DNA of 62,811 bases, counting the filler, from Sphacelaria rigidula (Eukaryota), in NCBI GenBank assembly GCA_964200075.2. It is 10 parts of 10 records of this genome, joined end to end, with 100 filler letters (N's around TTAATTAATTAA, not from the genome) between each part and the next. Parts side by side here need not be neighbours in the genome. Positions count along the whole stretch, not along the records: positions 50,330 to 56,520 come from CAXNAA020021626.1; 9 more parts are not named here. One strand, written 5' to 3'. The notes below the pieces were generated by a model. The model made no database searches and was not told the DNA's origin. It worked only from the letters and a program-made list of their open reading frames with translations. Positions 1 through 57,754 of this stretch are shown here, one piece after another; the first letter of the stretch is position 1, and each line of letters begins with the position of its first letter. The position numbers and the translations under genes were made by a program.

Positions 1-3000
1 CGCCCCCCGCCCCCACCCCCACTTTTCGAGCCTGTGTCGTAAAAAGACTACACATTTACGTCGCCGTCTCGAACAAAAAGCCGTTTTTGTATTTTCAATG
101 AGACCAAAAAATATTCATTTGGTCATGTTTCAGCTTTTTTTTTCGGATGAAAAATCAACATTTTGCCAACGTGGACGCCGTCGGAAATTCAGTCCCGGAA
201 GCGCTTGTTCGTCGGCCACACACGAAGGTTCACCCTTCTCTGCGTTGGTTGCAGCGAGATTTCGGCGATTTTGAACTTTCTCTCACCCTCTTGTATTTCT
301 GATGAGCGAGTGCGACAAGACAATCGGAGTCCCACAAACAAAAACGCGGTATAACGTATTTTCGAGAGGCCAAGCCTTGCCAGTGTCTGTACCGTCGGAG
401 CCCACTCTGCCCGTCAGCAAAACAAAGTGAATAACCTACCTGCGCAGGCAGCAGCACCCTCTCGTCATCGCCCGCAAGCGCTACGATAGCCCGTTAGGCC
501 GCTGATTCGGATCGGTACTCTCGGTGTGGCGTATCCCAACTTTTGGTTAGTCTACTCGAGAGGTTGGCCTGACAACTGTTTTCAACGACAACAGCAGCTC
601 AAAAAAGGGTGATGCCTGCATCACGTTGTGCCACCTAGATAGACTCTCTTGAAGTAATGGTTATTTTTGCTACTGACTGACAGTGCAGTCGGTACATTCA
701 GGAAACAATACTCGTGTACCCTCGGAAAAAAAAAAAGACGGCCATTTACTCCGTCCCAACACAACAAGCAAACTATCGCTACTGGAAATACTGAGGTATT
801 GACGGTCAAACGGGGTGGCGATGGCAGGCGAGCAAACGCGAGCCTTGAGGTTTGTGCACGAGTGCTGGAGATCTATAGTGTCTTTCCCTTGCTCAAAAAA
901 AGAAATCCCTTGCTCAAAAAAAGAAATCAACCATCCAACCATCCATCCTCAAACAATCTTTAATTTAATTAATTAATTATACAACAGAAATTTATGCGCA
1001 TGCCGAAGAAAAATATTTCCCAAGCACATCAAGCTCGAAAGACAGTACGTGTGATTAGATTATTACGTACTCTTCCCAGCAGCAGCAGAGCAAGAGCATT
1101 TTGCTCGGGGCCAGAGCTCGTAACATAGTGGTGTAGTGTACACAGTAACTGCAACGCTGGTGTACAAAGTCGCTGGTACACATGGTGCAAACAACCGTAG
1201 TGGAGTTCATTTTTCAATTTCGCCCCTGGGATTTTGTACTATCGGTCATTATCCAATCTACTGGGTGCTGAAAAACTCTCATCACGAGACGGGATCAAAA
1301 TGGAACTCCAGTGCAGTTGTGCATATCACACGTACCAACATGTGTACAAAGTCTTCGGATCAGGATTCCAAAACTGGGAGAGGGAGCTACTGTGGGGAAT
1401 CATTGGAATCAAATAGCATTTTACGGGACAATTTATATACTTCCGCACGCATCTAACGGAACGTCCAAGGGCACGTATGACTCGACAAGGGGGACAAATT
1501 GCACTAGACATCCAAGCTCGTTTGCAAACCTTTCTAGCGTCTTCAGGGGCCCATGTTGAAGCTTATCACATTCAGAGCCGTCTATGTGATGAAACGAACA
1601 TAGTGCAAATAGTGTCGACAACATTCGCCCTGCATTTCACGGTTACTGTATCACGGTGGATACCATACGCGCGATGTTATTGGAACTCCCGTCGGAGGGG
1701 CTATCGGGAAAATGACCGTATGACACGGCACTTGCATATCGTGGCATCATCGCGGTGAACGGTGTGCGGTACCAAAGTGTGATATGGTACGGGTTGATGT
1801 TCCAAGAGATGATCTTCGAAAATGAGCTTGAACGTTCAAATGAGGTCTAACTCTAAAAACAGTGCTTTCCCTGACCTCAAGTCATGCCAAATGACTTTCA
1901 TATGGACGATCGCATGCTCCTCGATCTTCCTGAAACTATTTTCGGGGGTTTCCCATCTTTCATTCTCCCAAAGGGTATATACGAAATCACCATTTTCGGG
2001 CTGAAAGCGTCCCCTTTTTCACACCAAACTCGAGGCAAAGGGTGCGTCCACATATAATATACCCTCTGGGGGAACGGAAGGCGGGGAACACCCAAAAATG
2101 GGTTCAGGGAGGTCGGGGGGGGGGGGGGGGAAGGGCGGGGGTGAGGTCGTCCATATGAAAGTTAACTGTCATGACTTTGGAGCTGATCCACAGTTTATGG
2201 TTTAACTTCACTCTCGAAGATATTATATTTTCCCGTTTTCTCAGCATCGCTGGTTACCGTGGTCAGAGGTTTTCCGAAATTGCAGTACGATACGGTACAG
2301 AGCCGGGCGACCGCGGTACCTACGCGTTATAAATAAAAGTTCCGCGAGAAATGGAATGGTTGGTATCCCAACCGCGGAAAATCGCGGTTCTGGGCATGTT
2401 TTCACGTATAAGCGTTCAGGTTTACTGTACTACACTGTTTACATTCATGCTCGCGTTGTCAATGGATGAATCAACGGCAATCCCGATAACCATCGTGTAA
2501 ATACAGAAACAGTCCATCGAAAAACACGCGCAGGAAAAAGCAGATACGGTAGGACAACTTCGCTCGACTGTGTCACTATTTTCCGACTACGTTTCTGCAT
2601 TCGCTGCATTGTCCCGAACACGTCGAAATTGACTAGTGAATTACTTTTTATACCTGGTATCTCACATCTAATATTTATTATTTAGAATCTAGATAAGGCA
2701 ACAACACAAAATTGAACGGAACAAAATCGACCAAGTCAGCGTTAATCTTGCGTTGGCGAGCAAGATAAACCGCAAGTTACACAGTTAAAAATAAAAATCG
2801 CCTATCCGGATTGTGTAACCAAGTACAAGAACTACCTTACGAAAAATAAAGCAGGAAAAGGGAGAAAAAGAAGAAATGTCAATTAAATAATTTTCTCTGT
2901 CACGCAGTGTTATTTTTTTATATATTGCAGAGGCATTTTACAGAGGTTACAATTCGCAACCCGCGACGCCCGTTGGAGACGGGTCCTGCTCCAAGGCGTA

Positions 3001-4079
3001 AAACATGCTGAGGCTACAGGGGTAGACGTCCTTGAAAGGGACGGGTCCACATCAGCACGGCAAGGTGGCACTACAGACACTCGCGCAAGCTGAGACGCCC
3101 GGATGAAAAAGGATGCATGTCACTGCGGAGGGCGGAAGCATTCGACACACAATTTGTATCGTGGCCCGGTGAATGATTGGTTGTTAGATTGTCGCACTTT
3201 AACTGATCCCTCCAGTGGTCCGGCTGTGGTCTCATGATAGACGGAATTACACAAAGAAGTTGGCACTGTGTGCTTCTGGCTGTGTGTGCTCCTAGCCGGC
3301 AGTACAACGAGTACTGTATTATTGACTGTACGATGCGAGTCAAGCATGGGCAGCGATGGAATACCCGCATTCCATCATGAAAGTTGCAACTTGCACCTTC
3401 CACTCTGTCCTATTCCGGAACCAAGCAATTCAGTAGAAAAAAACTCGGCAAAAGCGCGATCACGCGCCCGTCAGAGAAAGGCCAAGATATCCACGTGAGA
3501 ACGCTCGCGCCGAGAATTTATAGTTGATGATGATAAAATAATACTAGAGCAACCGCCCCTGTCCTCGTCAGACCGTCGTGGTATACGGCCGGCTACGTCT
3601 GGCACTGTCTGGAAGGAGACGTTGACTCCTCTTCCCGAACAGGTCCACAGTGGTCCTGGGCAAAATACGCTCTTCTCTTCGGCTGCGCTGTACGGCCACG
3701 TCTTGCGGGACACGGCGTATAAAACCTCAAGGCCATCTGCCTCTCACATATGACGGACCCCGACTGGTGGTTATTTCTGGTGCTAGTGCCAGCGTCGACC
3801 GACAAGCGGCCGACCTAAACGACAACGCTGGCAACACCTACCGCTGCCTCCGCGTGGCTTTCACATCGTCCTCCCCCCTACTTGTTACGGATGCGTGGTC
3901 AATGGTCAAACGACTAAGGCAAGCAACACATGAGAACGCCCCCTAATTGTCACTAGCAAGTGATAAAAATGTTTCGAAACACCTCAGCATCGCGCACATG
4001 AATAATTTTCAAGCTACGTAGCACACAAAACGTCTTGGATTGCCGAAACTGCTGCGTCTAAACCTAGTTAATGCTTCAA

Positions 4080-6292: not shown

Positions 6293-7532
6293 CTCCATTA
6301 GGAGTAGGAACGGTGCTCCGTCTCGAAAGGGATGCGTGGTCAATGGTCAAATAACTAAGGCAAGCAACAAATGAGTACGCCCCCCCCTCAAAACCAGCCC
6401 AAAAGTGTCACGAAAAAAATGGTCATACAGCGCCTGATTTTTGGCTCAGGCTGCATGAAGCGCCTCATATGGACGACATTGGCGAGAACGAACCCAAGCG
6501 TGGCAATTTTCAGCTGCTCGTTGTGCTCGACTTTTTCCCGGTTCGATTCACGTGAAGATTTTGCCTCCCCAAACCAGCTATTATTTTTTTTTTGGGGGGG
6601 GGCTATCGTAGAAACTGTCAAGTACCAAAAAATTTAAGCGCAAGATACTGTCCCGGTGGTGTCGTGTGTAGGAGTACACACCGCGCTCTCCACCTTGGGT
6701 GCATTGTGCGGCTGAACATACAGACGGCAGCACTTATTTTACCTCTTGTATAATGCGTTCTCGGAGTGCACCACACATCAACACACGCACGTAGCGAGAC
6801 GAAGTTACTCCGAGTGAGACCCCTGATGCAACATTTTCTCTAGCCCCCTGTCCGTCTGTGGCTTCTCTTCATTCGGTTTCATTGACGACGGCGGATTGGG
6901 CGCGAGTCTCGTGATAGGGGCGGACTCCCGCCCCTCGTGCTCTATGGCGACGTCTGCGGAACATGCTAAGTGAGCTGCGTGGTGTTCTTCACATGTGAAT
7001 TCATGGGTGTACAACTTCCTCTTCACAGCACGTTCCGCGCCCAGCAAAAACAATCGGATAGTGACAGCATGTTGCAGGTGTTGAGGGTACGCTTTGAAAG
7101 GACTTGAAAAAATGGTCGTATCCCCCTCACTATCAGCGGTTAGGAGGTGCGTACAGCCTCCGATTACGGAGAGTTTCCCCTCAACTCACGACCTAGCCAT
7201 CAAAAGAATGTAGTCTTAAATCGAGTGTACCCGATTCGGCAAACTGGAAAACGAAGACAACTTGTCTATCGTCGGAAAGACATCGTCGAACAGCCTGGAC
7301 AGTTTTCAGAGGCTAACCCCTCCCCCCCCCCCCCCCCTCCCCGATTCACATACCTGAAATTGTTACTCGCGCACATAAAAACGCGGAACACATACTCATA
7401 CGGCAGCAGAAAATAACAAGACTGAAACGTGGCATGGTACACTTTACAGGATCGCCGAACCGTGCGTATGTACAAGCACACCCAAGCACAGACTGGAGTA
7501 TGACACATTGGAATTTATACACTAGACCATGC

Positions 7533-12583: not shown

Positions 12584-12650
12584 CCTGCTTTGTAGGGATG
12601 CGAGGTCAATGGTCTCATGACTATGGCATGCATGATCATGAGTACACCCT
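12584..12650 (+). mobile_element. LINE-like 3' end, subfamily B; others at about 8565-8650, 40986-41035 (+), 50160-50229 (-); related upstream part at 18875-18945 (-)
   Basis: Shared TTTGTAGGGATGCGAGGTCAATGGTC.CATGACTATGGCATGCATGATCATGAGTACA-poly(C). The 18875 copy encodes GDKICKRFLCNAWKKRNE, similar to the subfamily A translation. Confidence 0.65.
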
Positions 12651-17773: not shown

Positions 17774-18562
17774 TTAACAGCGATGCTACGAGCAAAATCA
17801 GCTTTGCTAGAACGGCCTTATTCTTGGCAATCGTTATTATTTGATAATGATGTCTCCATCCTACTGGACAGAGAGTTTTACGCTCAAACCTTGGCTCAAA
17901 CGACAAAAGGTTAATGAAATAAGGAAGGAAGGGTGAGCTACCAACACCACCTCCCCCGCCAGTGGCCATCGAAGCAGCGAGTCAGAAGTCGGCGCAGACC
18001 ATTGTAATCGAATTTACTTACGCTCCAGGATTGTAACTGTACATCTGCCTGGATGTAAGGGAAATGGATACTGAGATTTGTGACGGTAAACCGTCATCCT
18101 GCGATAGGGGGGGGGGTATTTGGTTTCACAAAAAAGGAGGCTTATAAGTGTGTCAGACGACCTGCCACACTCGCGGTGCGCGTGGATTTGATCCGAAACG
18201 ATGTGAATGAGCGTCACGTATCTATAAAAAGCTAGTTCGAACAACCGTTGCTGCTTTTAACGACGATTTGACCTGGAATCTCGTGCAACAAATGGCCCAA
18301 AATACCCCCCCCCCCCCACCCCTCCACAAGATCCCGCACATCCTCCTATTAACGATTAAGACAATAACAAAAAAAAGCAACAACTCACAATCTANNNNNN
18401 NNNNGCTGCTTTTAACGACGGTTTGACCTGGAATCTCGTGCACCAAATGGCCCAAAATCCCCCCCCCCCCCCTATCGTACCCCCCCTCACCTCTAGACTC
18501 TTGGGTTGGCGTCGAGTGGCAACGGCGCTGTAAAACAAGCCACCAAAACCTAGACAAATGTA

Positions 18563-31300: not shown

Positions 31301-34300
31301 GAGAAGTTTGTGGCGTGTAGATGAACACCTGTCGTGTAAACGGGTGCAGCGTTGTTNNNNNNNNNNNNNNNNNNNNNNNNNNNNNNNNNNNNNNNNNNNN
31401 TTAATTAATTAANNNNNNNNNNNNNNNNNNNNNNNNNNNNNNNNNNNNNNNNNNNNCGTGGTCAATGGTCGAACGCCTAAGGCAAGCAACAAACGAGTGC
31501 CCCCCCCCCCCCCCCCCCCCTCTTCGACGTCTGTTTTTCATCGGAGCAGGCCCACTACCGGTCGATGGCCGGCCCGAGGCAACGGTCATCACTTCGGGTA
31601 CACAATAACCGATTTTCTCGAGAATGAAGAGCGTGTACTCATGCGAAAGGTCCCGTTTATCGACATACAGTAAAGATCCAAAGTTTCCATCAGAGTGCGG
31701 TCATTCGGGTTGGAGAATCTACCGCACCCCGGGAGGACACCAACCGTATATCCAGTGAAGAGATCTTGTCAACCGCAAATCTTGTGTCGGCGTCTCCGCA
31801 GCAGTATTCGAGAAAATCGAGTATGAAACATTACACACCGATGAAAAAAACTTGACATAGCACCTACGGTAGCCTGACATCCATTCCTCGACTCACAGTA
31901 AACCTCGTTTAATGCAACAGTAAAATACTGTAGCGTAGCCAAACTGATGGTCGAGGCCGTAGTGCGCTGCTTTCAAGCGATTTTCTCAAGAAACTTAATT
32001 TCAAAGGCGACATAGCCTTTGTTCGAACGGCAAGTAATTTACGTCCATATACACTGCACAGTCATTCGTCGTTTTGTACGCAAGCCTACTTGATGGGTCC
32101 ACACCCTGGCCGATACAGCTCGACACACCCACATCACCTTAGCCATATCTGGAGGCACCAGGAGGTCGCACACGATGGGGTCATTGGGGTTTCTGATGCT
32201 CCTTGTCTTGAGCACCTGAGCCGCGATTCGCCTTCGCATCTCCTGGCTAACTCTCTGCAGAGCGTACGCCATGTGTTATCGAATGCCCACAGCAAAAACA
32301 ACCATATCCAGCAACCGTCAATTCAGAGGTGCCGGTTCAGGAAACGATAAAAAAAAAGGGCAGCACGGGTGAGCAGTAAAGACACAGACGTCAAGCCCCT
32401 TGGTTGCTAAGGCTTTGAGATCTTCGCTACACGTTCCTGCCCCCGACCGCCACGCGATTTGGAATGTTTGTCTCGCGGTAAGCTGACCACAACCACGACA
32501 CAACCAACGCACAGGAGAGAGTGATATGGCCTTCAGACTAGTCTGTGCTTCGTGTCAGTGGCGACGCAACCCACCCTTTAGGCAGTGACAGTGGGTCATG
32601 CCGACAGTGCTGACCTCCACGCAACCCCGCAGCTGCGGAGTTTTTGCCCCGCAGCGGGAACAAAATCGAACCCCGCAGCTGCAGACTTTTACCCGGGGTT
32701 GGGAACAAAATTTAACCCCGGAGCTGCGAGGGAGTAAGAATAATGCTAGATTACGGTAAATAACACCTGCCTACGATGCAAGTCTTAAACTCGAAAATTT
32801 CACACAGCACGGTCCAACTATACTACTTTTGGGGGAGAAAATAACGATCGGCACCGTTGGGATAAAATCTAGCGTGGAAGTTTGCGGCTAGTTCCCCCCC
32901 CCCCTGCAGCAGCGCACGCGTCTGACGTGTCGCTCGAAACGAAGTCCTCCATTAACCTCCATCCTGTGAGTAAATTGAAACGGTGCTCCATTTTTGCCGT
33001 GTGTACCTACAAAGCACGGTGCAACTGTCTGCCTCGCTTTTTTAGTACGGATCGAACCGAACGCAGTGTCTGCGGGCGGCAGACAGGCCCATGTTGTTGC
33101 CTTCAGCAGGATACTCCTAGCCTGGCCTAAACCTGACCCCAACGATCAAACCTGTGAAACCCCGAACGTGTCTCAAGGGCAAACAAAAAGCACTGCAAGG
33201 CGGTAACATGCTGTGCTGCGCAGTACAGGGGGCACGATCTTGAGGATACATGCTGCGGTGTGCGCCGCCAGAGAACCGATTGATATCCTCGACTCAAGGA
33301 TCACGTAGCGGTCGCCAGGTTTGGTGGTTGAAATGAATGATAGAGGGCGTCACAATCCCACCCACCAACATTTCATCGCTTCTGGTGTGTCTGCGAAGAA
33401 AAACTTGCGTTTGCCGTTTGAGTATCCTGTTCAGTCAGAACAAACAAAAAAAGTGCGGCTTGTTTCTTTCAGTACCATAACGGTGAGTGGATCTTCGGCC
33501 GCGCATCGAAGAGAGGGGCGGAAGTCCTTCCGCCAAAGAGTTGGCAGCGCAACAACAGATCAAGAGAAGCTCGCGCATCCACAGCAGTGCACTACCACCA
33601 GCGCATTCTGCAGGCAACATCAAGTACTGTGCGTGGTGTCGCACAAAAAGAATCGCTGTCGTCGCTATCAGCGAGGAGCATCGAACATTGCACGCTGACC
33701 GTACCGTCCACAGCCGTTCCGTTTTGGTCCGACAACAACAGATAGTCGAGGGTCAACCAACGGAGGCATCAAAACCCATTAGCAACGACCACAGGCTACA
33801 GGGTTGGAGATGGCACGTCATTAATTCTATTCCTGGGAAACCCAATCAACATATATTGAAATCGGTACGAGTGCAGTAGAACAGCAACAGTAGGTACCAA
33901 TCGCTGCCGCCCCAACATGGCGTATGTGAGATGTTGTGCGACTTCCCCCCCAAACCCTGGTCGGGTGCGGCATGATTCGGAGTACTGAATGTCGGTCAGG
34001 TGCTACGTGCGGTGACTGTTGTGACAATTACCTAAACTATGCAAGTACGCGTGCAGGATCGGTGTACTGTACTGTGAAAGAGACGCGGAAAGTAAAGAAA
34101 AACATGCGAAGTTGCGGTACACCCTGCACAGGGCACAAGAAGTTAAGGGGAGGGTAAGGTAGGGTGGGGGGAACGTCATTGTAGAGTACTGGAAAACACT
34201 CGGTTGTCCGCGGCACCATGCCGTAATTGAATTGAAACCCAAGCAATCACGGCTGCACCATTGTAATCTCGATGCGAGAGATACAGAACATGTATACTGA

Positions 34301-42066: not shown

Positions 42067-42230
42067 TGTCCTAAAAGGCTCTTGTTTAATGTGTGGAAGA
42101 AGTGTATTGAGCGCCCAAATGTTGGAGATGTCTCTTTTAAAAGTAGAAGCGGTGCTCCATCTCGAAAGGGATGCGTGGTCAATGAGCAAATGGCTGAGGT
42201 GAGCAACAAAATCATTTCTGTCCCCCCTCA
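42067..42230 (+). mobile_element. 3' end of a LINE-like retroelement, subfamily A (longest copy); others at about 3887-3943, 6293-6387, 31457-31520, 44039-44088 (+) and 56453-56520 (-)
   Basis: Shared GGGATGCGTGGTCAATGGTCAAA(C/T)GACTAAGGCAAGCAACAAATGAGTACG-poly(C). Copies share the 3' end and vary at the 5' end. Reads KRLLFNVWKK...RKGCVVNEQMAEVSNK, like an ORF2 C-terminus. Confidence 0.7.
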
Positions 42231-43812: not shown

Positions 43813-44392
43813 GATACGTTGGGTTTTTTCTTCGTAATGTATAATTTCCCCCGTGGAAAGCGTGAGAACGTGAGTAAACAAAATAGTCGACTGGGTTTGT
43901 GTGACGTGAGTTGACGCGGTGCAGGAGGGGTGACCCAANNNNNNNNNNNNNNNNNNNNNNNNNNNNNNNNNNNNNNNNNNNNTTAATTAATTAANNNNNN
44001 NNNNNNNNNNNNNNNNNNNNNNNNNNNNNNNNNNNNNNGGTCAATGGTCAAATGACTAAGGCAAGCAACAAATGAGTACGCCCCCCCCTCTCGTAGGACG
44101 ACTCCTCTCTACTGCTTTGCCACAGGGGGGGAAGCAGCATACAAACCGCGTACCCCTCCTGATACGTGGGTGAAAAAATAAAGTTCGAATGAGATACAAA
44201 AAGAAAAGAAAGAAAATAAAAGAGAAAATGAGAGAGAAAAAAATGAAATTGAATGAAGAAGATAAACAGAAGGAAACGAACTCCACTGAAAAAAACTATC
44301 ATCGAAAAAAGAGAAAATATGTGAAGAGAAGTTGAAATAAATGCAGTGAATATAACAAAGAGTGAAAATACATGGGCTAATAAAGAAAAACC

Positions 44393-45544: not shown

Positions 45545-45930
45545 AGTGAAATCGGCATTTATCTTCGTTGTTTTTGAAGGATACACGTGCGCTTCTCAGG
45601 CCTCATCTGCCGCAGAGAACTCAACAAGATTGTACTGTTTGGTTATTCGTTGTCCGGGCCTGCTGTGAGCTTCACTTCCCTTCGTTACGTTGCCGCAGCC
45701 CAGGACAGTAGTAGTGAGAGGAGACCTGAAAAAAAACGCGCAGTCAGCATCGAGGGTTCATATTTATCTGTACCGCAAGAAGATTCGCCGAGCCCTACGC
45801 AGCCAGGTTGCACCATGCTTTTCATGTCTGTATAGCACCGATTAACGCGAGCCATCCAGAATAACAGTACGACCGCTTACAAAAAAAGAGCCAGCAGCGT
45901 TGATGCCGCCACAGTCCTTTTCTCGGGTTA
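45545..45930. repeat. Dispersed repeat, inverted homolog at about 50845-51420
   Basis: Shared blocks CAACAAGATTG.ACTGTT.GGTTATT.GT.GTCCGGGCCTG, GCCCAGGACAG, CGCGAG.CATCCAGAA and GCCAGCAGC.TTGATGC. Confidence 0.72.
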
Positions 45931-48900
45931 TGTATTATACTTTCAGCACTATAAGCTGGAACGCCTCGGCTGCCACGCCTCCTTTCGGGACGACATTATT
46001 ACGGAATCTTTCTGGTGCCGAACCCGGCGCAACGCTTACGTGAGTTCAACATAAATGGTACCCTGCAAACGATAGCACGGGCGATGTTGCCATGTACTAC
46101 GGCAGCTTTCATGGGGTGCTGAGGTTCCCACAATGATCACAATGATACTGTTCCCAAAAGAGGCGTGGCAGCCAAGGCAGCGCTACGTGAATTGCATAAA
46201 GTACAACGCACCTGGTGGGAGTGTGGGACTCGTACATGCGGATGACGCAGAACCATCACGTAACGTCACACTGCGTAGACCTTGAGATATTTCATCATCC
46301 CACCAATCCTTTCCACGTGGCCAAACCGCCGCCACTTTTCCCCTGGGGAATATTCTTGGGAGCGTTCTGTATTTAATCTGGTGCTATTGGCACACGAACG
46401 TTTTTTGTCACGCTCTATCGATACACGACGTATCTCTTCTTTCACCGTCTACCCCCCATCCCCCCCCTCCTCGAGTACGCCCCCCCCCCCCTCCTCAGTA
46501 AAGCCTGGTCCGGCGAGAATCCGGCGTGCTCTGTCCCGGCTTTGTAGGAGCGGACCACCGATGGGGTTGGTATCAATTGGCGATAGCGCTAAAAAACACG
46601 TCACTCAGTGCGTAAGCTGTGCAACAAGGTTACCGACTTTGTTTCGCGCGGTAGTAGCCCGTGGTCTCAAGGGATGAACCCATCTCCCGCCACGTCTTCA
46701 TGTTTTCGACGTCGGAATCACATTTTGAGGAAAAACACGCATCTGGCGGAAATCGAAGACGCCTTCTCCGCACCGTGATGGCGACAATCTGACCACTAAA
46801 CCGCGTTCTGTCCTTTACTTAAGCCAGTATATTATCGGCGCACGGATGTTTCCGTCGCATGAACACGATCAGGTACATGAGCTGTCGGAGCACACGCACG
46901 GCGATCTTTCGTCGCAGAGATATGTTTAGTTGGCCTACGTATGTTGCCGCGGATCTTGCGGTGTTCGGTGGAAGCTGTTTCAGCTTCCAGGCCGGCCGCG
47001 CTCGTATGCTGTCTGCATTTACTGTGATACCGTCTGCGCTCTTTGCTGCGCTCTACTGAAGCCGTGCTTGTACAAACAAGCTCGTGGCTGAACCAGAACA
47101 TTAGCACGGGGTGGCGGGGCAAATGTGACGTGGGCCTGCGTTGAATACCCCTGTCCATTTCGGGCTTGGCAAGACGCGTTCATTTGTGTCCAGCCTCATG
47201 ACAAGATGGTGCGCCTGCGATTGGTATAGATGCCAAAAACTGAACATACGAATTATTGCGGGGGGCTTAGAGGGAGGGTACTCATGATTATGCATGCCAC
47301 AGTCATGAGACAATTTACCTCGAGGGGGAGGGGGGGGGCTCTTCACGAAAGTGATGCAGTTGATAGCCGTGGTGAAACCTTTGAAACTCAACTTGGTTCA
47401 TATGCTGAGATTATGGTACTGGACTCGCGGAAAGGATGTACACTGTATTCGATGATAGTCGTACAACCTCACCACGAGTGATAAACCCCTGAGGGATCAA
47501 ACTTGAAAAAACCACTTAGGTGGCCGAGTGTTTGAGTTGCCCGATGACCACGCCGCACGTTTGAAAAAGGTAATAATAGGGGAAAAACACTTCGCCCAAC
47601 AAGGTACCCATTGTAATGCGTGGAAGGAGTGCGTGCTTTTTGGATCCATCGCAGTGTAAACACCCCTAGGGTTAGGGTGAGGGTGAGGAGTGGAGTAAGG
47701 GTCACGGCTGCGGTCCCTGCAGGGACTGGCCCGAGCGACCTCGAGAACAGGTCGGTCCCGGGGTGTTTTGAACTCCGACGCGGTCTTCCCACGTACTACA
47801 CCCACGTTCGTTGCATCACTCCGGCGGCTGATGCGGTTGCGTGCAGAGACCTTCATGCTGCCTTGTCTTCGACGCTCTTCGATACGTCAAGATTTTCATT
47901 ACTGTGTAGCGAAGATCGTCCGAAACTCCGGGGTATCTAGAGTATCACAATCGATCGCAAGACCGCCCGTGAGGGTTAAAAAACCGCTCAAACTACTATT
48001 CTTTGCCATGTTCGACAATTGTATCATCATGAGCGTCCTCTTTCTAAATCAAGGGCGTACACCGGCGTTCGCGGCGAAGAAAGTCGCCAGGAATCTTCGA
48101 TATGCATGCACTGTTGATCATGTGCACGTATTTTTTCCAAAGCGCACCCATCCTTCATTTTCATTGCACCACTCAAAATCGCACAAGCTTGTCCCACCAC
48201 GAGAGGCTAAAAAAGTGTCTGCGGCAATTTCTCGCTCAAACTATGAGGGTTCGGCCCTGATATTTCGAGGGAGCGTCCAAAGCGATCATTCAAAAGTCAT
48301 CACCACTCATGCTCCCTCTTAGGAGGGTTGGGGTGGGGTGGGGGGGTAGAAGGGGCATTATATCGGTTTCGTTTTAGCCCAAGATAGACACATTTCCCGG
48401 AATCATTAAAAGACAGAAATTACTAGTGATGGTCTTTAGCAAATCGAGTTGCACCTCGTGAAGTTGAGGGCCCGAAGTCTCAAAACTGGAAGGAAATATC
48501 CAGCTCCAGTGACTTAGGTACGTTGTAGAACATGAGCCCTACTTGTCGCTATGACGGGAGAATCCCCAAACGTTTCTGCTTCTTACTTTTTTCTTCGGAG
48601 AAACAACCTGAACCCCTGCCTTCTGACATTCGTTGAGCTGCTCCCTTTTTATCTTGATTCCTTGATTCGCGGACACCGAACAAGGCGAGTTGGAAGTTGT
48701 GGCCGATTTTGAGGCAGGCAAAATTGTCTCAATATCTTGATCAACGCCCTCCGCCCCGGTTATTTTTGCAACATTCTTGCCAAATGCTCTGAAGCAGCCT
48801 TCAAAAACCGCAGATGGCGCTCGCATATTCAATGCCCTGCGTGTTAGAAATGAGGGGGCCGAACTCGTGAAACCTGAATGACAAATCGCAGTTTGATCTC

Positions 48901-49450: not shown

Positions 49451-50165
49451 CCCTCAGACAGCAAGCGTTCCCTCGCAACAGTTTTACAGGCTGACAGTCC
49501 GGAGGGGGATTTCAGTGGCCGGGGGCGGGGCGTGGGGGAGGGGCTCTGTCTGCGGAGCAGCCGCAAAGCTCACCAAGTCAACAATGTGTCTGTGGAAGTT
49601 TCTCGCGGAAGATCCTAAGCCAGAAGCGAGGCCCGACAGGCGCGAAATGGTCATTCTGACCAATCACGGTCGCCAAAATGAGCACGTAGCTCCCTCTACA
49701 GGTGGACTACTTCGCTTTCTACTGACATATTTCATTTGGGTCAAGGTAATTCAACTAGAGATTACACGGTTACAAATAACTCGTTTCATATTCTGCTCGA
49801 GGTCTGTCCCGCCTGTCTGGCGCCTCATGTGTTGCCAGCATAGCTTCACACTGTCTGTAGTGTTGTTGTTTAACACTAAGCAGACGGCATCAGCAGCATG
49901 CAGTAAATTGTGCCCAGTCTGGAGCAATGGCGCACTTATGCTGTCTCTCGCCGGTGTATCCAGCGAAGACAAACAGCACACATGCATGCTGACTCTGCGC
50001 GCAATTGACTGCAGGGTCAACTCTGGCCAGGAGTTCCCGGGGACTATTTCCTGAATAGATGCCAAATATTCACGTGTTCATGGAAAAGGCGTTTTGTGTC
50101 GCAAGAAACGAGCTAATCTGAATCCCAAATGTGGCATAGTTCAACATAGTTCACCTGCGGGGGGA
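49451..50165. mobile_element. Second, inverted copy of the piggyBac-like element, lacking the 36160-36500 insert
   Basis: Starts TCAA|CCCTCAGACAGCAAGCG; shares CATTCTGACCAATCACGG, TGCTCGAGGTC and CCCAAATGTGGCATAGT blocks (reverse complement); ends where a LINE-like 3' end begins. Confidence 0.75.
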
Positions 50166-51486
50166 GGGGGGGTGTACTCATGATCATGCATGCCATAGTC
50201 ATGCGACCATTGACCTCGCATCCCTACAANNNNNNNNNNNNNNNNNNNNNNNNNNNNNNNNNNNNNNNNNNNNTTAATTAATTAANNNNNNNNNNNNNNN
50301 NNNNNNNNNNNNNNNNNNNNNNNNNNNNNGCCGAAAAGACCCTCCCCACGCCGTACCGACAAGACTGGTCATGGCCTTCGTCGGAGGACGGGGAACGGAG
50401 GTTTTACAGGTACGGGTTTATTTTCATAGTACAAACACTTATTTCAAGTATTTTTACTTTAATAATTGTCCTGTCCCTCTACGTTTTAGAGTACATTTCA
50501 TAGTACAAACTTGATTTTAGTATAGGTTCCGTTACACATGGTTTTGCCGGTCTTCTGGTGCTCGCAGCCGCGGTGCAGCACCGTGCGGAGGTGGGGTGAT
50601 ATCCAAGACTAAGGCAGTCTCACAAGCGGCGCTCTGTCTATTGGTTTTCCGGGTAGTGTACCCAACGTGCGCTATGAGTGTCGCCATGCCCGCGGTATGG
50701 TTGCGGTGGCCTGGGTTGATGTTGCAGTCACCATTATTTGCGCTTAGGTTGCTACTGCATCTGCACGGCCTTGGATACGGCGGACGATTCAAGATGGCTC
50801 CATCGTCGTCGTTGTGGGATGTTTCATGTTACTCGGACGGAACATAAACCGAGAAAAAGACTCCACACGCATCAATGCTGCTGGCCCCCTTTTGTGGGCT
50901 GTCGTGTTGTTGTTCTGGATGACTCGCGTTGATCGATGCCGTATAGACATGCATGGCAATCAAGCACGGTGCCAACTGGCTGGCCAGCGCTGGCGGATCT
51001 TCTTGCGATACAGATACAGTCGGTATCGCGACAGAAATTTGTTGCGGTACAACGCTGGAGACAACCAAGCGCTCTACACACAGGACATCAGACAGCCAAC
51101 GCAATAATGTATCTCTCTCGTGTATACGATTCCGTGTGCTAGAATGCCGCTTCCTTTCGAAGGTGTACGCTTCGCTTACTTTGACATGGTGCCATCTTGG
51201 TGTGTATCAGAATATTATCGATGCTGGCTGCACTTCTTTTTCTTCCCAGCTCTCCTCCTCCTGCTGTCCTGGGCTATAGCAAGCCAACGGAGGAAATTGA
51301 AGTCCAGAACAGGCCCGGACGACAAATAACCGAACAGTGCAATCTTGTTGACCTCTCTGTGGCAATTAGGGTTTGAGTAACGCACGTGTCCAGCGATAAT
51401 CCCGACAAGAATGATGGAAAACAACGAAAAAATCGATGATTTCAGTTTAACTATTTCATAGCGACCCGTACCTATGAACTCAGTGC

Positions 51487-51620
51487 CGACGAGACAGCGA
51501 TGATGAACAGCTTGGTGGGGAATGCGGAGCTTGTGCGCAAGCTGTTGCGATAAGCGCATGAGTCGGACGAGACAGCGATGATGAACAGCTTGGTGGGGAG
51601 TGCGGAGCTTGTGCGCAAGT
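51487..51620. repeat. Tandem duplication of a 52-nt unit just downstream of the transposase-like exons
   Basis: GACGAGACAGCGATGATGAACAGCTTGGTGGG.A.TGCGGAGCTTGTGCGCAAG twice. Confidence 0.85.
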
Positions 51621-51792
51621 GGCCCGGTAAGACCCGTGAGAGAACATTGAACGTAGCGGTCAAGGATACGAACCAACGATGGCGTTGCTCGAAGCAATAC
51701 AGATAGTTCCTTTGACCTTTACATGTGTTCGGCATCCGACATTGCTTCATTACTACTGTACTGTACTGTGCAGACGAGGCGCCCTCGCTTAC

Positions 51793-53280
51793 CTTCTTGC
51801 TTCTCATACACAAATATGTAACCTCTCTGTGAGGCATGTGTTGGCCGCTAGTGTAGGCGATGTGATCGAGAAACGCCACAATGCCCTCGTATCGGTTGCC
51901 TGGGTACACCCCGTCAGTCGTCCTGTTGCAGCACGCTATAATGCAGAAGAAGGGGGGTTGGGGCAGACGGGGGTGAGGGAGAAGCGGCGGGATGCTGTCC
52001 TTGGCACCGCGATGCGGGGATGCGGGTTGGATGTCGGTGCAATATGTTGAACTCATGTCAAACGTGAGTTGAACATGAGCTCAACTCACGCTACAATAAC
52101 AGTGCGCCCAAGATATTACACTGAGTCTTGCGTATGCCGCAGTAGTTGCGTATTTCTGTGCGTGCCTGCATGCAGCCATCATAAATGGGACGACGTGCTT
52201 CCAGCTTACTGGAAACCGCCCCCTTGTCTGCTGCTAGAAATGAGCATCGCGCCGCAAAATAGGCATATCTAACTTAAAATATAAGTCACGACCCCAGCTA
52301 ATGGGCAATAATTAAATACACTCCGATCATGGGCTACGGTAACCGCCTCCGTGCTCGGTGCAGATCTCATAGAACTCGGACAGACATGGTACGGCATACC
52401 TGTTCATTACCGCCGGAGAGCGTGGATTCCTCTTTGCTGATTCGATGGTATTGTGCGACAGGCCAACAGCCATCCTGAAGAACGCGTTGAACACCATATG
52501 TTTCCCCGCCAGCATAGATCCACCGTTTTGGGGAAATTTTACTAGCGGCACCTGCAGGTGCACCCAATCGAGCCGAGCTCGGCATGACCTCAGCTTGGCA
52601 AAATCGCTTTGCTCCGCACGCAGCACGACGACATCATGGGCGCTGCGCGCAAAAGCGTCAACACACCTAAGAGTTGTGCAGCACTGAAAGGACCTCTGTA
52701 CCATATCCGACACATCCGTAGTCGCCGGCCATTTTGTGCGCTTTGAAACGCAAGGGATGGATCGGCTCCCTGATTGTCGGCCTTGACTGCCCAGATGTAG
52801 GGTGCTGTTGCACGAGCCGCCTGGAGACTGGGCTGCGGTGTTTGGGCTGATGGGCTGGAGGGGATGTGGGCTCAATCCGGTGGGAGTGCGGACGTCACCA
52901 CCTCCAGGTGGGGGTATGTTCGGCCGTGGACGTCCACGTTGGGCGGTCACCACCTGGCTTTCCACGTACGCGCTCATCTCGCGGGACTGCGAGGGGAGAG
53001 TTACCCGCTGTGAGCGGATAGGGGGTAGTTTACAAACTGATTCTTGCTCTGGACTTGTATCGTCCCCAACGTACCGAAGGCTGCCGGCGGCGTTTCTCGT
53101 ATGGCTTTTACCAACGGTGGGATAAGCCTTCTGAATCTCCGCCGAATGTTTGCTCATGGTGGATGGTATGGCATCATTCCAATCGACGGTTCTTGTGATC
53201 GCATACAGTCGCATCGCGCTAACTTTCTGATGTGAGTTTTCAATTCCGCTTTCGTGTTCTGATTTATACTGCTCGCACAT
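51793..53280 (-). CDS. Spliced gene resembling the N-terminal region of Sola/DUF7869-type DNA transposases (exons about 53280-52400 and 51922-51793); truncated
   Basis: Longest ORF in the window (317 aa). Donor AACAG|GTATGC joins in phase to acceptor CAACAG|G, then AAG|GTAAGC. Pattern CC.TLRCVDAF...AGKHMVFNAFFRMAVGLS...IVAFLDHIAYTSGQHMPHREVTYL resembles the CC..C..F / G..VC..F....G+S / G+.MPH....+L series recalled for that family. No catalytic domain seen. Confidence 0.5.
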
Positions 53281-53556
53281 TCCTCCGTCCCCGAACGGCT
53301 CTGTACACGCATCCGCGGGTAATTACCGCGCAAAAAAGAACGTTGCGAAGGCGCGTTCTACACAGCAGCGATGTGAACGAACGGTTGGCCATATAAACTT
53401 CTCTTCACATATGAAATAATCGTGCGTGCACACTACAATCAGTTTACCCGTAGCGATATGCCACTGGCACTCGGCACCAATTAGGGAGGAAAATACGCGT
53501 TGTCCGCAGTACGAATTGGAGCACTACTGACAGAGCTGCATCTTCCGACGGCTGCA

Positions 53557-55542
53557 ATGGAGCGACCACCCCGTTCAGGGGCATCCGATCGCCGCGATCG
53601 AACCGCCTCCCCCCTCGCTGCCCACGTCCAACAAAAAGGCACGCTCCCCGCCCTGCCCCCCCCCTGCCCTCTACTCGAATTGGTCAACTCAAACCGCCGG
53701 CGATTAATCACATCCACTGCCGCCGGTGAAATGTCTGGGCCCGCGCCTCGAAGGTTAGACGAAAGCGAGGGGGGAACCCTCGCGAACAGCCTCACGCAAA
53801 ACTTCATCGACTGCTTCGAGGTGCCTCTGAGCCAGATAAGGCTGACCGCGTTCACGCGCCCAATTAACGACAGAGGTCTCGACGTGATGGTAAGTCCATC
53901 ACGGAGAACGGATGGCTCCGTCACGCCGCGCCCGCGCTTGTGGTGCAGAGGGAAGGACTGCCGAACCGCGGATTCACTGAAGACTGCACCCTGTCAATAG
54001 TTCATATAGTACTCGACGGTAACCATCGACTCGCGGCGGCCAAGAAGATCATGAGCAGAGACACGAGACTACGCTGCCGGGTTCACTACGCGTTCGACGC
54101 CGCCGCTATGAGAGTATTGGGCGACTGTGAGTTGCCGCGCGCCTATGTTCGTGCTTGTTGTGTACCCGCCAAAGTCGCCACGATCCAAAGACGTCAGGCG
54201 ACCCACGTTTTCTGTTTCTCAATTAACCTCCGTCTCTGTGTCGCCCCGCTTGTGACGTACAGCAATATTGCCCGTCGTGAGTCGTTTGTCTCATGTTTTT
54301 AAAGTTGAAATCGTGTATGAGTCGAGGTATGCATGCCACGTGTAGACGTAGTCGCGAGTCCCCTGCACCATATTGAGGTGCCCAGCATCTGAGCACCGCA
54401 GGCGTGTGTGTCACATACCTAAGCACAGCCGTCTGTGCAAGTATCACTCATACGACTTCTTTATTTTAGGACATGAATCTCTTGAGGTCGCCCTCGATTG
54501 CCATACCACTAGCTGACGTTTCCCCGGCCCTTCTCATACCTCCCCCCCCACCACCCCCCCTTCCCCTACCTGCATTTGCTCCTTCTGCTGTAATGTTCGT
54601 ATGCCCTCGGCAGCACTCAATGATGCCACGGAGACCATAACCGCGCGGACAACGTATGACACTTTATATCTCCACGCCGAGAACATGAAGGGCATCAAGA
54701 AGAGGAACAAAAAGACGAACGTAACCGCGCAGGAGATGGCCAAAGCTTACCGGACGGTGCGTTCACACGTGATACAAGTGCTGCACTCAGTACATACCCG
54801 GTTGCCCTGAATCCCTCCGTTTTTTTTTCATTTTTTTGTCATGTTTCATTATTTTGCCCTTTTTAGCACGTATCGTTCCATTTTTCTTGTTGTCGAGTGT
54901 CCACTCCTTCCAGTGCTTTGCTTGTGTAATCTTCTATCCCTTTTTCCGACGTCTTGGTCTGTTAAGTCGTCCAGATCGAATTTTTTTGTTCTATCCCCTG
55001 TGCAAGATACGTCTATCATGTCACCACGGCTGAATCCGGGGGGGATTACTTTGCGTGCGGCCATCAGGGAATCAATCGATCAAACAAACACCCCGCTCCT
55101 GATCGCGTGATCTTTGAGCAGTGTTGACGGCAACTTCTTTCGTGCCCGAAATCCTTCCCGCTTGAAATGAGGCGGACGCTTCAGCGCCGCAGCCCGTTTG
55201 ATTCCATGACGCCACGGTGATGGTCGGGTACAGAAATGTTCGCATGATTCACACATACATCCTCCTGTCCGCACGATGCCTTGAATTCCTTTTTGCCACG
55301 GACGTGGGAAACCCACAGGCGGGAATCAATCCACCCAGCGTTCAGACGCTCCGAATCTGGAAGAAGGTAGTGTGTGGTCTATCCCAGGAAGCATTTGAAG
55401 CAGTCCGCGACGTCTTCCAGAGTGCGGAATAAAATACCAACGCCAAGCATGCGTCGCTGAATTTTTTTACACACAAAAACTTCACGACGTTGAAGGCGGA
55501 CGACCCGACGGCCCAAGCTCTGGCCGTGCATATCATGGCGAG
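53557..55542 (+). CDS. Spliced ParB/Srx-domain protein with HTH-like segment; exons about 53557 (or 53731)-53889, 53949-54126, 54614-54756, 55319-55542; in-frame TAA at 55430-55432 (premature or true end)
   Basis: Splice sites ATG|GTAAGT, GCAG|, T|GTGAGT, GCAG|, ACG|GTGCGT, ACAG| are phase-compatible (0,1,0). Joined protein: EVPLSQIRLTAFTRPINDRGLDVMREGLPNRGFTEDCTLSIVHIVLDGNHRLAAAKK...LRCRV...RVLGDSLNDATE...TAQEMAKAYRTAGINPPSVQTLRIWKK. DGNHRLAA matches the ParB/Srx core DGxHR motif. Confidence 0.78.
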
Positions 55543-57754
55543 GTGTGAACCCAGATACATATTGATGCAGCACTTAGACTTTAGTTTCGTATGCGCGTTT
55601 TTTGCTTGAAATTAAGCTCCTCACACTCTTTTTATAAGCTTTTTATTATTTCTTTAAGCCCCACGTAAGGTTTTTGAGCGCAAATTAGGCGCGCTTTATG
55701 CGCCTGATTCCCGTCCTTGTTGTGGTGTTGTGGTAGTACCCCTTCACGAGGCGCATCTTCTAGCACAAGGACAAGACGACTAGTTGGGCATTCAAAGTTT
55801 TGATGCTCATTTTAAATTGAAAAACAAAGCTTTTCATCAGTCATCAGGTTTGAAGGCCACAACCTGCACACCTACACCCTAGCCCACGTACAGAAACAAC
55901 AAATGAGTGCTACTACACTTATGATACATGATGCAGCAGTAGGGCATTGTAGCCTGTAGACACGGGGCATTGCAGCTGTTGGCCTCTCGCCTGGCAAGCT
56001 ACAAGCTACCAACTTTCCCCCCCATCATCTACCGTCGGTCGACATTGAAAATCTTGTCGAACTACGTGAACCGGCTGTACGCTGTACAAGTGTACTACTG
56101 ACTACAGTAGCCTCAGTCACATTTTTGAAAAGAACATAGAACAGCAAATTGTGCGAATTGAGGTTCAACTCTGAGATGAGGTTCAAGTGGGCAACCCGAC
56201 TTGCCAATTATTTGTAGTAGAAGTACCGAGAACAAGCTCTTATTCGGAAGAAGTAACCTGTGGAGGTGAACCCGTAACGCGTCATATTCAGTACGTCGAA
56301 GAACCGAGAGAAGTAAGTCGGGTGAGCACTCTTGTTACTCTACACCACAGGGAAAAGGGTGGCAGCGCACGGATCCCACGTCTTGCGCTAAGCCCCCCCC
56401 CTCGAGCTGCGCCAGCGCGAGGAACAACACCTCGATCGTGCCCGACAGGGTTGGGGGGGGGGGGCGTACTCATTTGTTGCTTGCCTTAGTCGTTTGACCA
56501 TTGACCACGCATCCCTTTCGNNNNNNNNNNNNNNNNNNNNNNNNNNNNNNNNNNNNNNNNNNNNTTAATTAATTAANNNNNNNNNNNNNNNNNNNNNNNN
56601 NNNNNNNNNNNNNNNNNNNNTACCTACGCGTTCCAACAGCTTGGTAAAAAGTACAGCACTTTTGGCCATCTCGTGGAACTCTTGCCGTTTCTCTTCCTTC
56701 TCTAGTTCATCGATTCTCCATTTCTACATCTTCATGCAGGAGGGTGGAGGCTGCTCTTTCGGAATGTGATTCGTGTATATGTGCCGCCCTGATGACGCGT
56801 TCAGTACATGCAGTGATGGTACAGTCCAGAGAAATGATTGAGTGGAAGGGAGTATGACTCCCTGTGGTTGCTTTGCTGTTGGTCGGTGTCGTGCTTTGTC
56901 GGCGTTCTTCAGTCGCTACGGTCTGCGATTGCCGCATCCGCGGCTAAGAGGTTCTTCAGTATGCATGTTCCTACCCGACGGCTGCAACCGCGGCACTGAC
57001 CACCAGTAGTAAATCGCCCCAGAAACATAATTACTGGCGGCCCGCTACTGTGGAGCAGTTTGTCTCCTTTCACCAGCTTCTACAAACAGCGCGGCGGCCG
57101 AGTGCTCGAATCTTTCTCATGTGCTGTGGGCTGCGGAGATTGCTGTGTTCGACGCAAGCGTACAGCAGCGGCAGCAGTACCTCCCGATTCGCATGACAAC
57201 AACGAAGCGGCAGTATTCACTTTAATAGGTAGCCCTGAATTCGAAGCTCCGATCGCAAAGTGTCATGTCTCGCACACCCAGCGGCTCGCCGGTTGCCGAA
57301 GCCACTTCCGCACCCACCAACAGAGCTCCACGGAATCAAAGTAGACTACGGATGTGGATATGGATACGCCCGTTATCTGAATTATCGCGTTCGATTGATG
57401 CCTCGACTACCGCTGCATCTGATGCAGAAGCATAACCGTCCGCACGACCCCTCAAACACTACGCTGCACCTTGCTCTTCACCCTCGACAACAAGCAACAG
57501 GGCAAAGTACGGTTTCAGGCGCACCACCATTTTCGCGGGCGACAGAGACAGCATCCTCCATCGTTGCGGGCTTTGCGCACCCGGCCCCTCGCCCGCTGCC
57601 CTGCGCACGGTTACGAAGAAGGCGGCAACCAGGCAGCACCGATGCGTTCTGCGGCGGCGATAGCACGGGGTCTCTCACCAACATCAGCAGCTTTGGTCGG
57701 GGTTGGGCAGCAGAGAGGCGGCCGCTGCGGGCGGCCCGAGTAGGAATTGTGTCG

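Follow-up and report, generated by a model that had tools for sequence, protein, structure and literature searches.

Within a DNA stretch of 62,811 nucleotides (hereafter the window), we found two divergent, spliced genes: a plus-strand gene whose product probably belongs to the ParB/Srx superfamily, and a minus-strand gene of a brown-algal family with a conserved Cys-containing N-terminal pattern. The two genes overlap at their 5′ ends, which was unexpected, and both exist in several diverged versions. The interpretation that we favour, with about even confidence, is that the locus represents the central part of one decaying copy of a brown-algal multi-copy element that carries these two divergent, 5′-overlapping genes and would most likely be a large DNA transposon of the cut-and-paste type. 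Judging from its sequence, the window copy is non-functional in its present state: the ParB-like exon has suffered a deletion, the minus gene has lost a near-invariant cysteine, and the plus frame stops at 55430, a point beyond which a related transcript runs on. Copies that have the base missing from the window occur in the same organism.

The window consists of ten pieces of 6191–6192 bases joined by N44-TTAATTAATTAA-N44 spacers, and any feature apparently crossing a spacer is an artefact. The gene pair lies wholly inside piece 9 (50330–56520), which provides 6.2 kb of context. A preliminary description of this DNA had placed both genes within one contig, and this holds because the finding is confined to piece 9. 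Logan contigs of the runs X1, X3, X4, and X10 were compared with the window. X10 is RNA by guess only, and in that comparison no weight attaches to regions that X10 does not cover. The coordinates of the features are collected in Table 1.

The deletion in the plus gene was recognized by comparison with two relatives of the DGNHR exon: P0043, a partial S. rigidula protein of 225 amino acids (aa), and P0044, a Logan protein of 146 aa. P0043 covered 91% of the 86-aa query from this exon, with 79% identity. Both relatives read M-V-K-S-I-T without interruption, and in the alignment with them (A4) the two frames of the window abut with only the Val missing. The tblastn segments of the ParB-like exon lay in different frames and met at 53892. 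In all four runs, one contig per run carried a C inserted behind 53891, the C-bearing share of the depth at this position being 42/120 in X1, 80/80 in X3, 18/60 in X4, and 5.2/5.2 in X10. An X1 contig of 1490 nt (record 7) was identical to the window and thus had no C, and the C-bearing and C-lacking forms coexist in X1 and in X4. Since a window-identical contig exists with C-bearing copies alongside it, the 1-base deletion, present in the Logan contigs of two samples, is real. A 59-nt GT..AG intron had previously been proposed at 53890–53948; it proved to be a chance dinucleotide pair around the frameshift, and the relatives read through it. The phase-consistent GT-AG introns claimed for the two genes thus survived only in part: those at 52399–51923 on the minus strand and 54757–55318 on the plus strand stood, whereas the one at 53890–53948 had hidden the frameshift.

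The downstream structure of the plus gene was examined with the X10 contigs. When the predicted junctions were compared with these RNA-like contigs, the intron 54757–55318 was confirmed by a joint in one contig (depth 416.9), with X10 being RNA by guess. The X10 joints shown include none for the intron 54127–54613 (54126/54614). P0043 stops at the exon end 54126 and P0044 three residues past it, and the X10 depth was raised in bins 54470–54883. An X10 contig of 821 nt (record 15), derived from a copy about 89% alike, matched 55318–55428 with its positions 51–161 and then continued for about 660 nt beyond the window match. Because this contig runs on for about 660 nt past 55428 while the window has a TAA, the intact plus gene is longer than the frame seen here. 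Nothing supports the extension of the last plus exon up to 55542 in the preliminary description. The region 55298–55504, with the last plus exon, was matched by a contig about 89% alike at far higher depth (~1600 in X1 and 417 in X10), and therefore a related copy or another exon-sharing element far exceeds the ParB exon in abundance or expression; contig depths cannot rank genes.

The 5′ end of the plus gene lies on the far side of the minus start codon. Record 13 of X10 joins 52794–52907 to 53743–53991, and residues 26–69 of P0043 match the plus strand at 52761–52907 (tblastn, E 1.6e-4), antisense to the minus exon. From this joint, the P0043 match, and the GT at 52908, it follows that the plus transcript begins antisense within the minus coding exon. 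The region from which the two genes diverge had been put at no more than about 450 nt. This does not hold, as 753 nt separate the conserved start codons and the plus 5′ exon overlaps minus exon 1.

The minus open reading frame (ORF) at 53322–52327 comprises 331 aa from stop to stop and is the longest of the 111 window ORFs of at least 110 aa. It is open upstream of the ATG at 52977 to 53322, and a start at 53280 had been assigned; the relatives begin at the residue aligned with M102, which corresponds to ATG 52977. A phmmer search against 1.84 billion representatives (E ≤ 1e-3) found 39 relatives of the N-terminal domain, among which 24 had E ≤ 1e-10 and two had E ≤ 1e-30. Thirty-eight of them are 72–292 aa long, and the remaining one, P0025 (520 aa), was rejected as a low-complexity match. 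The relatives match query residues 103–297, and most stop at 284–297, the site of the predicted donor. Most are ORF calls on short contigs and therefore end at the first intron, leaving the downstream exons invisible. P0024 (a partial NCBI protein of Sphacelaria rigidula) and P0026 (Logan) are continuous across the exon junction, with residues 63–83 of P0024 matching 51894–51832 (tblastn). The minus intron (donor 52400/52399 with GT at 52399–52398; acceptor 51923/51922 with AG at 51924–51923) holds because these two relatives read through its junction. Exons 1 and 2 together encode 236 aa free of stops. Since the frame is still open at the GT donor that closes exon 2, further exons are expected; none beyond exon 2 was found in piece 9.

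Named members of the minus family came from Sphacelaria rigidula and Pylaiella littoralis, the Pylaiella model being a stand-alone protein of 100 aa. The conserved pattern of the family is F.CC..L.CV ... LR.EQ ... VP ... GSM.A...VCN.FF..AFGVS.N.I..K.NP (alignment A1). At one position where at least 90% of the relatives have Cys, the window copy has Phe (TTC, 52489–52491). The AlphaFold (AF2) model of the domain, computed with a 36-row alignment, was confident, with a pLDDT (predicted local distance difference test) of 85.2 and a pTM (predicted template modelling score) of 0.72. The domain encoded by exon 1 is a compact, Cys-rich, helical module, possibly resembling a helix-turn-helix (HTH); it represents an uncharacterised brown-algal family whose members are all short fragments lacking annotation. 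Searches with this model gave 86 Foldseek matches against PDB at E ≤ 10, none of them at ≤ 0.001, and 121 chains at Z ≥ 2 in VIA-align wide, none at Z ≥ 5. The HTH region of Spo0J was considered as a structural match and rejected as not above background (Z 3.4, root-mean-square deviation 3.7, 61 residues aligned). PDB sequence searches gave irrelevant matches only, the best score in the Atlas search was 0.84, which is a lead only, and alignment A3 of the domain found no relative in metagenome or viral contigs. The locus L004, obtained by a scan with P0007, was discarded as a spurious match of low complexity.

The motif region of the plus product (VLDGNHRLAAAKK) is preceded by KSITENGWL..APALVV, and both segments are conserved in P0043 and P0044. 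We take the consensus of the ParB/Srx N-domain to be DGxHR..A after a beta strand, with an SI..G..P segment before it. The PHROG ParB-like families phrog_4715 and phrog_1033 matched P0043 and P0044 in the same region (E 0.001–0.037), and further ParB-like PHROGs matched P0044 (overall E 0.001–0.05). Half of the weak phage tblastn matches (6/12) were in genes annotated as ParB-like, and all three of the phage ParB-like genes scanned were Pfam DUF6551. In hhalign, the plus-exon alignment A4 scored 87.5% (E 3.6e-6) against the phage DUF6551 proteins (A5) over 44 columns around DGxHR, compared with 0.33% for an unrelated control profile (A6 against A5). Over these columns (39% identity), the core strand, the DGxHRxAA helix, and the next strand align with those of the DUF6551 proteins of Mycobacterium phages. 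The latter are 265-aa proteins of prokaryotic viruses, in contrast to the spliced, eukaryotic gene of the window, and the likeness is confined to the motif region; hhalign with the joined plus exons did not extend the alignment past it. The Atlas matches included cluster sets with ParB_N (11% of members) and DUF6551 (38%), in each case a minority of the members. The DGNHR motif, the PHROG matches at E of about 0.001, and the hhalign contrast (87.5% versus 0.3%), weak as they are, converge on the ParB-like nature claimed in the preliminary description, to which we attach moderate confidence.

Both genes recur beyond the window. Each was present in several diverged versions within the same runs and also in other brown algae. 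For the intron sequence 52050–52313, X1 contained two contigs, both at a depth of about 22: the first was identical to the window, and the second, roughly 90% alike, showed 23 differences along with 3 gaps. In the cluster of the relative P0010 there were 12 variants, located on ENA contigs 80 kb–1.7 Mb long; a single one of these variants was carried by 15 contigs. P0044, which is ParB-like, and P0056, a member of the minus family 55% identical to the window, each lie on a single 2631-nt Logan contig. A head-to-head arrangement thus probably exists there too, and it also seems to recur in S. rigidula, where CAM9735452.1 lies on a contig of 8007 nt and CAM9920590.1 on one of 6606 nt.

The module had been presented as an undescribed one. 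Modules of this kind are already in print, as the portions of PMC12477816, bioRxiv 10.1101/2025.02.11.637652, and PMC4738411 that treat them make clear, ParB-like accessory genes being reported for Sola1-1_Ec32 in the first and for Plavaka PAG3 in the second. According to the relevant part of PMC12477816, Sola1-1_Ec32 of Ectocarpus is a Sola-1 DNA transposon of 21,549 bp (21.5 kb) with a 282-bp imperfect terminal inverted repeat (TIR) and a 4-bp duplication, and a 1104-aa gene that combines ParB-like and DNA-methyltransferase domains runs on the opposite strand from its transposase; the supplement labels this gene "Ectocarpus specific". Compared by description only, the present locus shares with it its host group, the brown algae, a ParB-like gene on the strand facing the element's other gene, introns, many degraded copies, and nested repeats. 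It differs in that neither a methyltransferase, nor a 282-bp TIR (AACCG..CGGTT ends), nor a 4-bp target duplication was seen in the 6.2-kb piece. When the ParB-like exon was compared by word search with longer proteins, no relative from Ectocarpus was obtained.

The PAG3 genes of red-algal Plavaka (EnSpm) elements combine an N-terminal ParB-like domain with a 2-oxoglutarate (2OG)-dependent oxygenase, and the best HHpred match supporting their ParB-likeness had an E value of 0.29, as given in the section on these genes in bioRxiv 10.1101/2025.02.11.637652. As in PAG3 so described, the ParB-likeness of the present gene emerges only by remote-homology methods (PHROG E ~0.001, hhalign 87.5%), and the gene would likewise be an accessory of a DNA transposon, here probably transposon-borne. 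In contrast to PAG3, the host lineage and the element superfamily differ, an oxygenase domain was not seen, and no inverted-repeat tandem array adjoins the gene. The Dam-type methyltransferases of chlorophytes and chytrids fused to a ParB-type HTH, as presented in part of PMC4738411, are similar in that ParB-derived DNA-binding modules occur in eukaryotic, partly transposon-linked, DNA-modification proteins. Those fusions contain the ParB HTH, whereas the ParB N-terminal DGxHR domain was detected here and no methyltransferase was seen. No methyltransferase or 2OG oxygenase domain was found in any ORF of piece 9; the related X10 contig continues for about 660 nt beyond 55428.

If the locus derives from a transposon, the Cys-rich helical domain at the N-terminus of the minus product would probably be the DNA-binding recognition part of the element's own transposase, and the catalytic exons of the minus gene would lie outside the 6.2-kb piece. 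By analogy with the published systems, the ParB/Srx N-domain of the plus product may bind the element's own DNA and recruit to it a further domain, which was not seen here. The occurrence of ParB-type proteins on eukaryotic transposons has been noticed only recently; their proposed role is to enable an element to bind its own DNA and perhaps to mark it. The present locus adds a second brown-algal lineage (Sphacelaria-like), a sequence-distinct ParB-like family, and an unannotated partner family. It thereby offers curators two protein families for classifying brown-algal repeats, as well as a concrete candidate pair for studies of self-recognition. Since the window copy is broken, it is useful for leading to intact copies rather than as a working gene.

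A number of results weigh against this interpretation. Neither TIRs nor target duplications were found in piece 9, which contains only one 16-nt inverted pair in 6191 nt, and a DDE/DDD catalytic domain was not found there either, in agreement with the preliminary description, which had seen neither TIRs nor a catalytic domain. An element as long as about 20 kb would extend past the limits of the 6.2-kb piece. The Sola/DUF7869-type transposase identity assigned to the minus gene could not be upheld, as no search connected this gene with any transposase: Pfam gave no family for the gene and its relatives, no minus-domain relative among the 1.84 billion representatives was fused to a catalytic domain (the longest true match being 292 aa), and a word search among proteins of 252–2000 aa yielded no minus-domain relative. 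The minus pattern may resemble the N-termini of animal proteins carrying DUF7869; a literature search for DUF7869 found no mention of it. As for the plus product, Pfam, including the ParB_N model, gave no family at E ≤ 5 for P0043 and P0044, and the PDB sequence/profile search gave no ParB chain. The AF2 model of P0044 (4-row alignment) was poor (pLDDT 40.8), with an element order compatible with ParB/Srx, and exons 54614–54756 and 55319–55429 had no Pfam or PHROG match, so that the HTH of the preliminary description found no support. In addition, the copy number rests on summed contig depths, which are not copy numbers. P0044 and P0056 are probably on one contig, as judged from equal size only, in S. 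rigidula the layout might belong to an orthologous locus and not to a second insertion, and the RNA nature of X10 was assumed.

The same observations can be read in other ways. The pair may be transposon-borne with the minus gene as a second accessory or regulatory DNA-binding gene, the transposase being located elsewhere in a giant element or the element being non-autonomous; we regard this as possible, on balance unlikely. Most relatives are ORF calls on short contigs that end at the first intron, the open frame at the donor of exon 2 leads one to expect more exons, and the possible resemblance to the N-termini of DUF7869 proteins would favour a transposase. Nevertheless, every true relative is short, with no fusion to a catalytic domain among them, the Pylaiella protein model has 100 aa and stands alone, genes without transposase homology are frequent in giant Ectocarpus elements, according to the portion of PMC12477816 concerned with them, and cassettes of three accessory genes are described for red-algal elements in the corresponding part of bioRxiv 10.1101/2025.02.11.637652. 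A more speculative proposal, which we consider rather improbable, is that the minus domain (CC..C...VC) represents a new zinc-linked DNA-binding module of unclassified brown-algal transposons, in which a ParB/Srx gene would have been captured independently of Sola1-1_Ec32. In such a system the genes would be transcribed through each other's 5′ ends, and therefore the expression of the accessory gene and that of the transposase would be coupled antisense.

That the locus is instead a lineage-specific duplicated host gene pair, not mobile and here represented by a pseudogene copy, appears improbable. The lack of termini and target duplications in piece 9, the finding of only two ParB-like relatives, and a layout in common with S. 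rigidula that could reflect synteny would suit such a pair, whereas the several diverged versions in one run, intron sequence included, the 12 variants in one cluster with one on 15 contigs, the repeat-dense surroundings, and the published ParB-like genes in algal transposons argue against it. The locus might also be a remnant of an integrated giant virus (phaeovirus-like), as ParB-like domains are common in viruses, in line with the PHROG and phage matches, and brown-algal genomes carry giant-virus insertions. We nevertheless judge it very unlikely, because spliceosomal introns interrupt the genes, the window ORFs include no viral hallmark gene, and a pattern scan of IMG/VR viral contigs, which reaches close relatives only, found no relative of either gene. 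Equally remote is the arrangement originally described, that is, an intact, spliced ParB-HTH gene beside a Sola-type transposase in an undescribed module. The genes are divergent, the DGNHR motif is present, and the GT..AG pair at 53890–53948 does keep the frame; however, splicing there would delete about 20 residues conserved in both relatives, an RNA-like contig of a related copy retains this stretch, the missing base is present in other contigs, Sola homology was not shown, and comparable modules have been published, as the part of PMC12477816 on Sola1-1_Ec32 indicates.

Table 1. Exons and introns of the two genes in piece 9, and the repeat unit shared among pieces (window positions)
Feature	Position	Strand	Remarks
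Plus 5′ exon, probably untranslated	52794..52907	+	donor CAG/GT at 52907/52908; antisense inside minus exon 1
ParB-like coding exon	53731..54126	+	ATG 53731; DGNHR motif; 1-base deletion after 53891 in Val codon
Putative plus intron	54127..54613	+	GT..AG, 487 nt; phase kept; long pyrimidine tract before acceptor
Plus exon	54614..54756	+	47 whole codons and a shared one; phase kept; HTH of the preliminary description starts here
Plus intron	54757..55318	+	GT..AG, 562 nt; joint 54755/6 to 55318/9 in X10
Plus exon	55319..55429	+	37 codons, then TAA 55430-55432 in window copy
Minus coding exon 1	52400..52977	-	conserved ATG 52977; tblastn of P0001 residues 1-192 onto 52977-52399
Minus intron 1	51923..52399	-	GT..AG, 477 nt; relatives cease matching at 52396-52414
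Minus exon 2	51793..51922	-	43 codons after one shared base; GT next at 51792
~64-68-nt unit	56453-56520, 6324-6395, 12584-12649, 31457-31513, 44039-44088, 50162-50229, 3889-3943, 42142-42230		repeat

Outside the gene pair, the annotation searches gave little. Pfam (E ≤ 0.001) found no family in the 104 ORFs of at least 110 aa from the rest of the window, and the seven ORFs around the gene pair gave sub-threshold noise only (zf-Tnp_2, E 0.046; Lin-15B, E 0.054). No Rfam match was obtained in piece 9 at E ≤ 0.1, and Tandem Repeats Finder reported two trivial 11-nt runs only. The window contains three further N10 gaps, at 18395, 23988, and 40888, within homopolymer or low-complexity runs.

The gene pair has repeats on both sides, and the pieces share many short repeats. 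The region 50537–51571 is moderately repeated, with a summed depth of about 1600–3800 compared with 22–29 for single contigs. This region resembles 45583–45933 in piece 8 (about 75% alike), shows no frame-specific conservation, and contains a two-copy direct repeat with a spacing of 78 nt (51488–51541 and 51566–51619); it probably represents an unrelated, nested repeat on the downstream side of minus exon 2. The flanks of piece 9 at 56126–56332 and 50330–50536 are of very high copy, with summed depths of about 1e5 to 4e5 in three runs. A unit of about 64–68 nt behind a poly-G run was found in seven of the ten pieces, often exactly at the piece ends and in two sequence subtypes, with summed run depths of 1–3 million. 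Many contigs step back 60–68 nt at this unit, and it therefore forms tandem arrays elsewhere.

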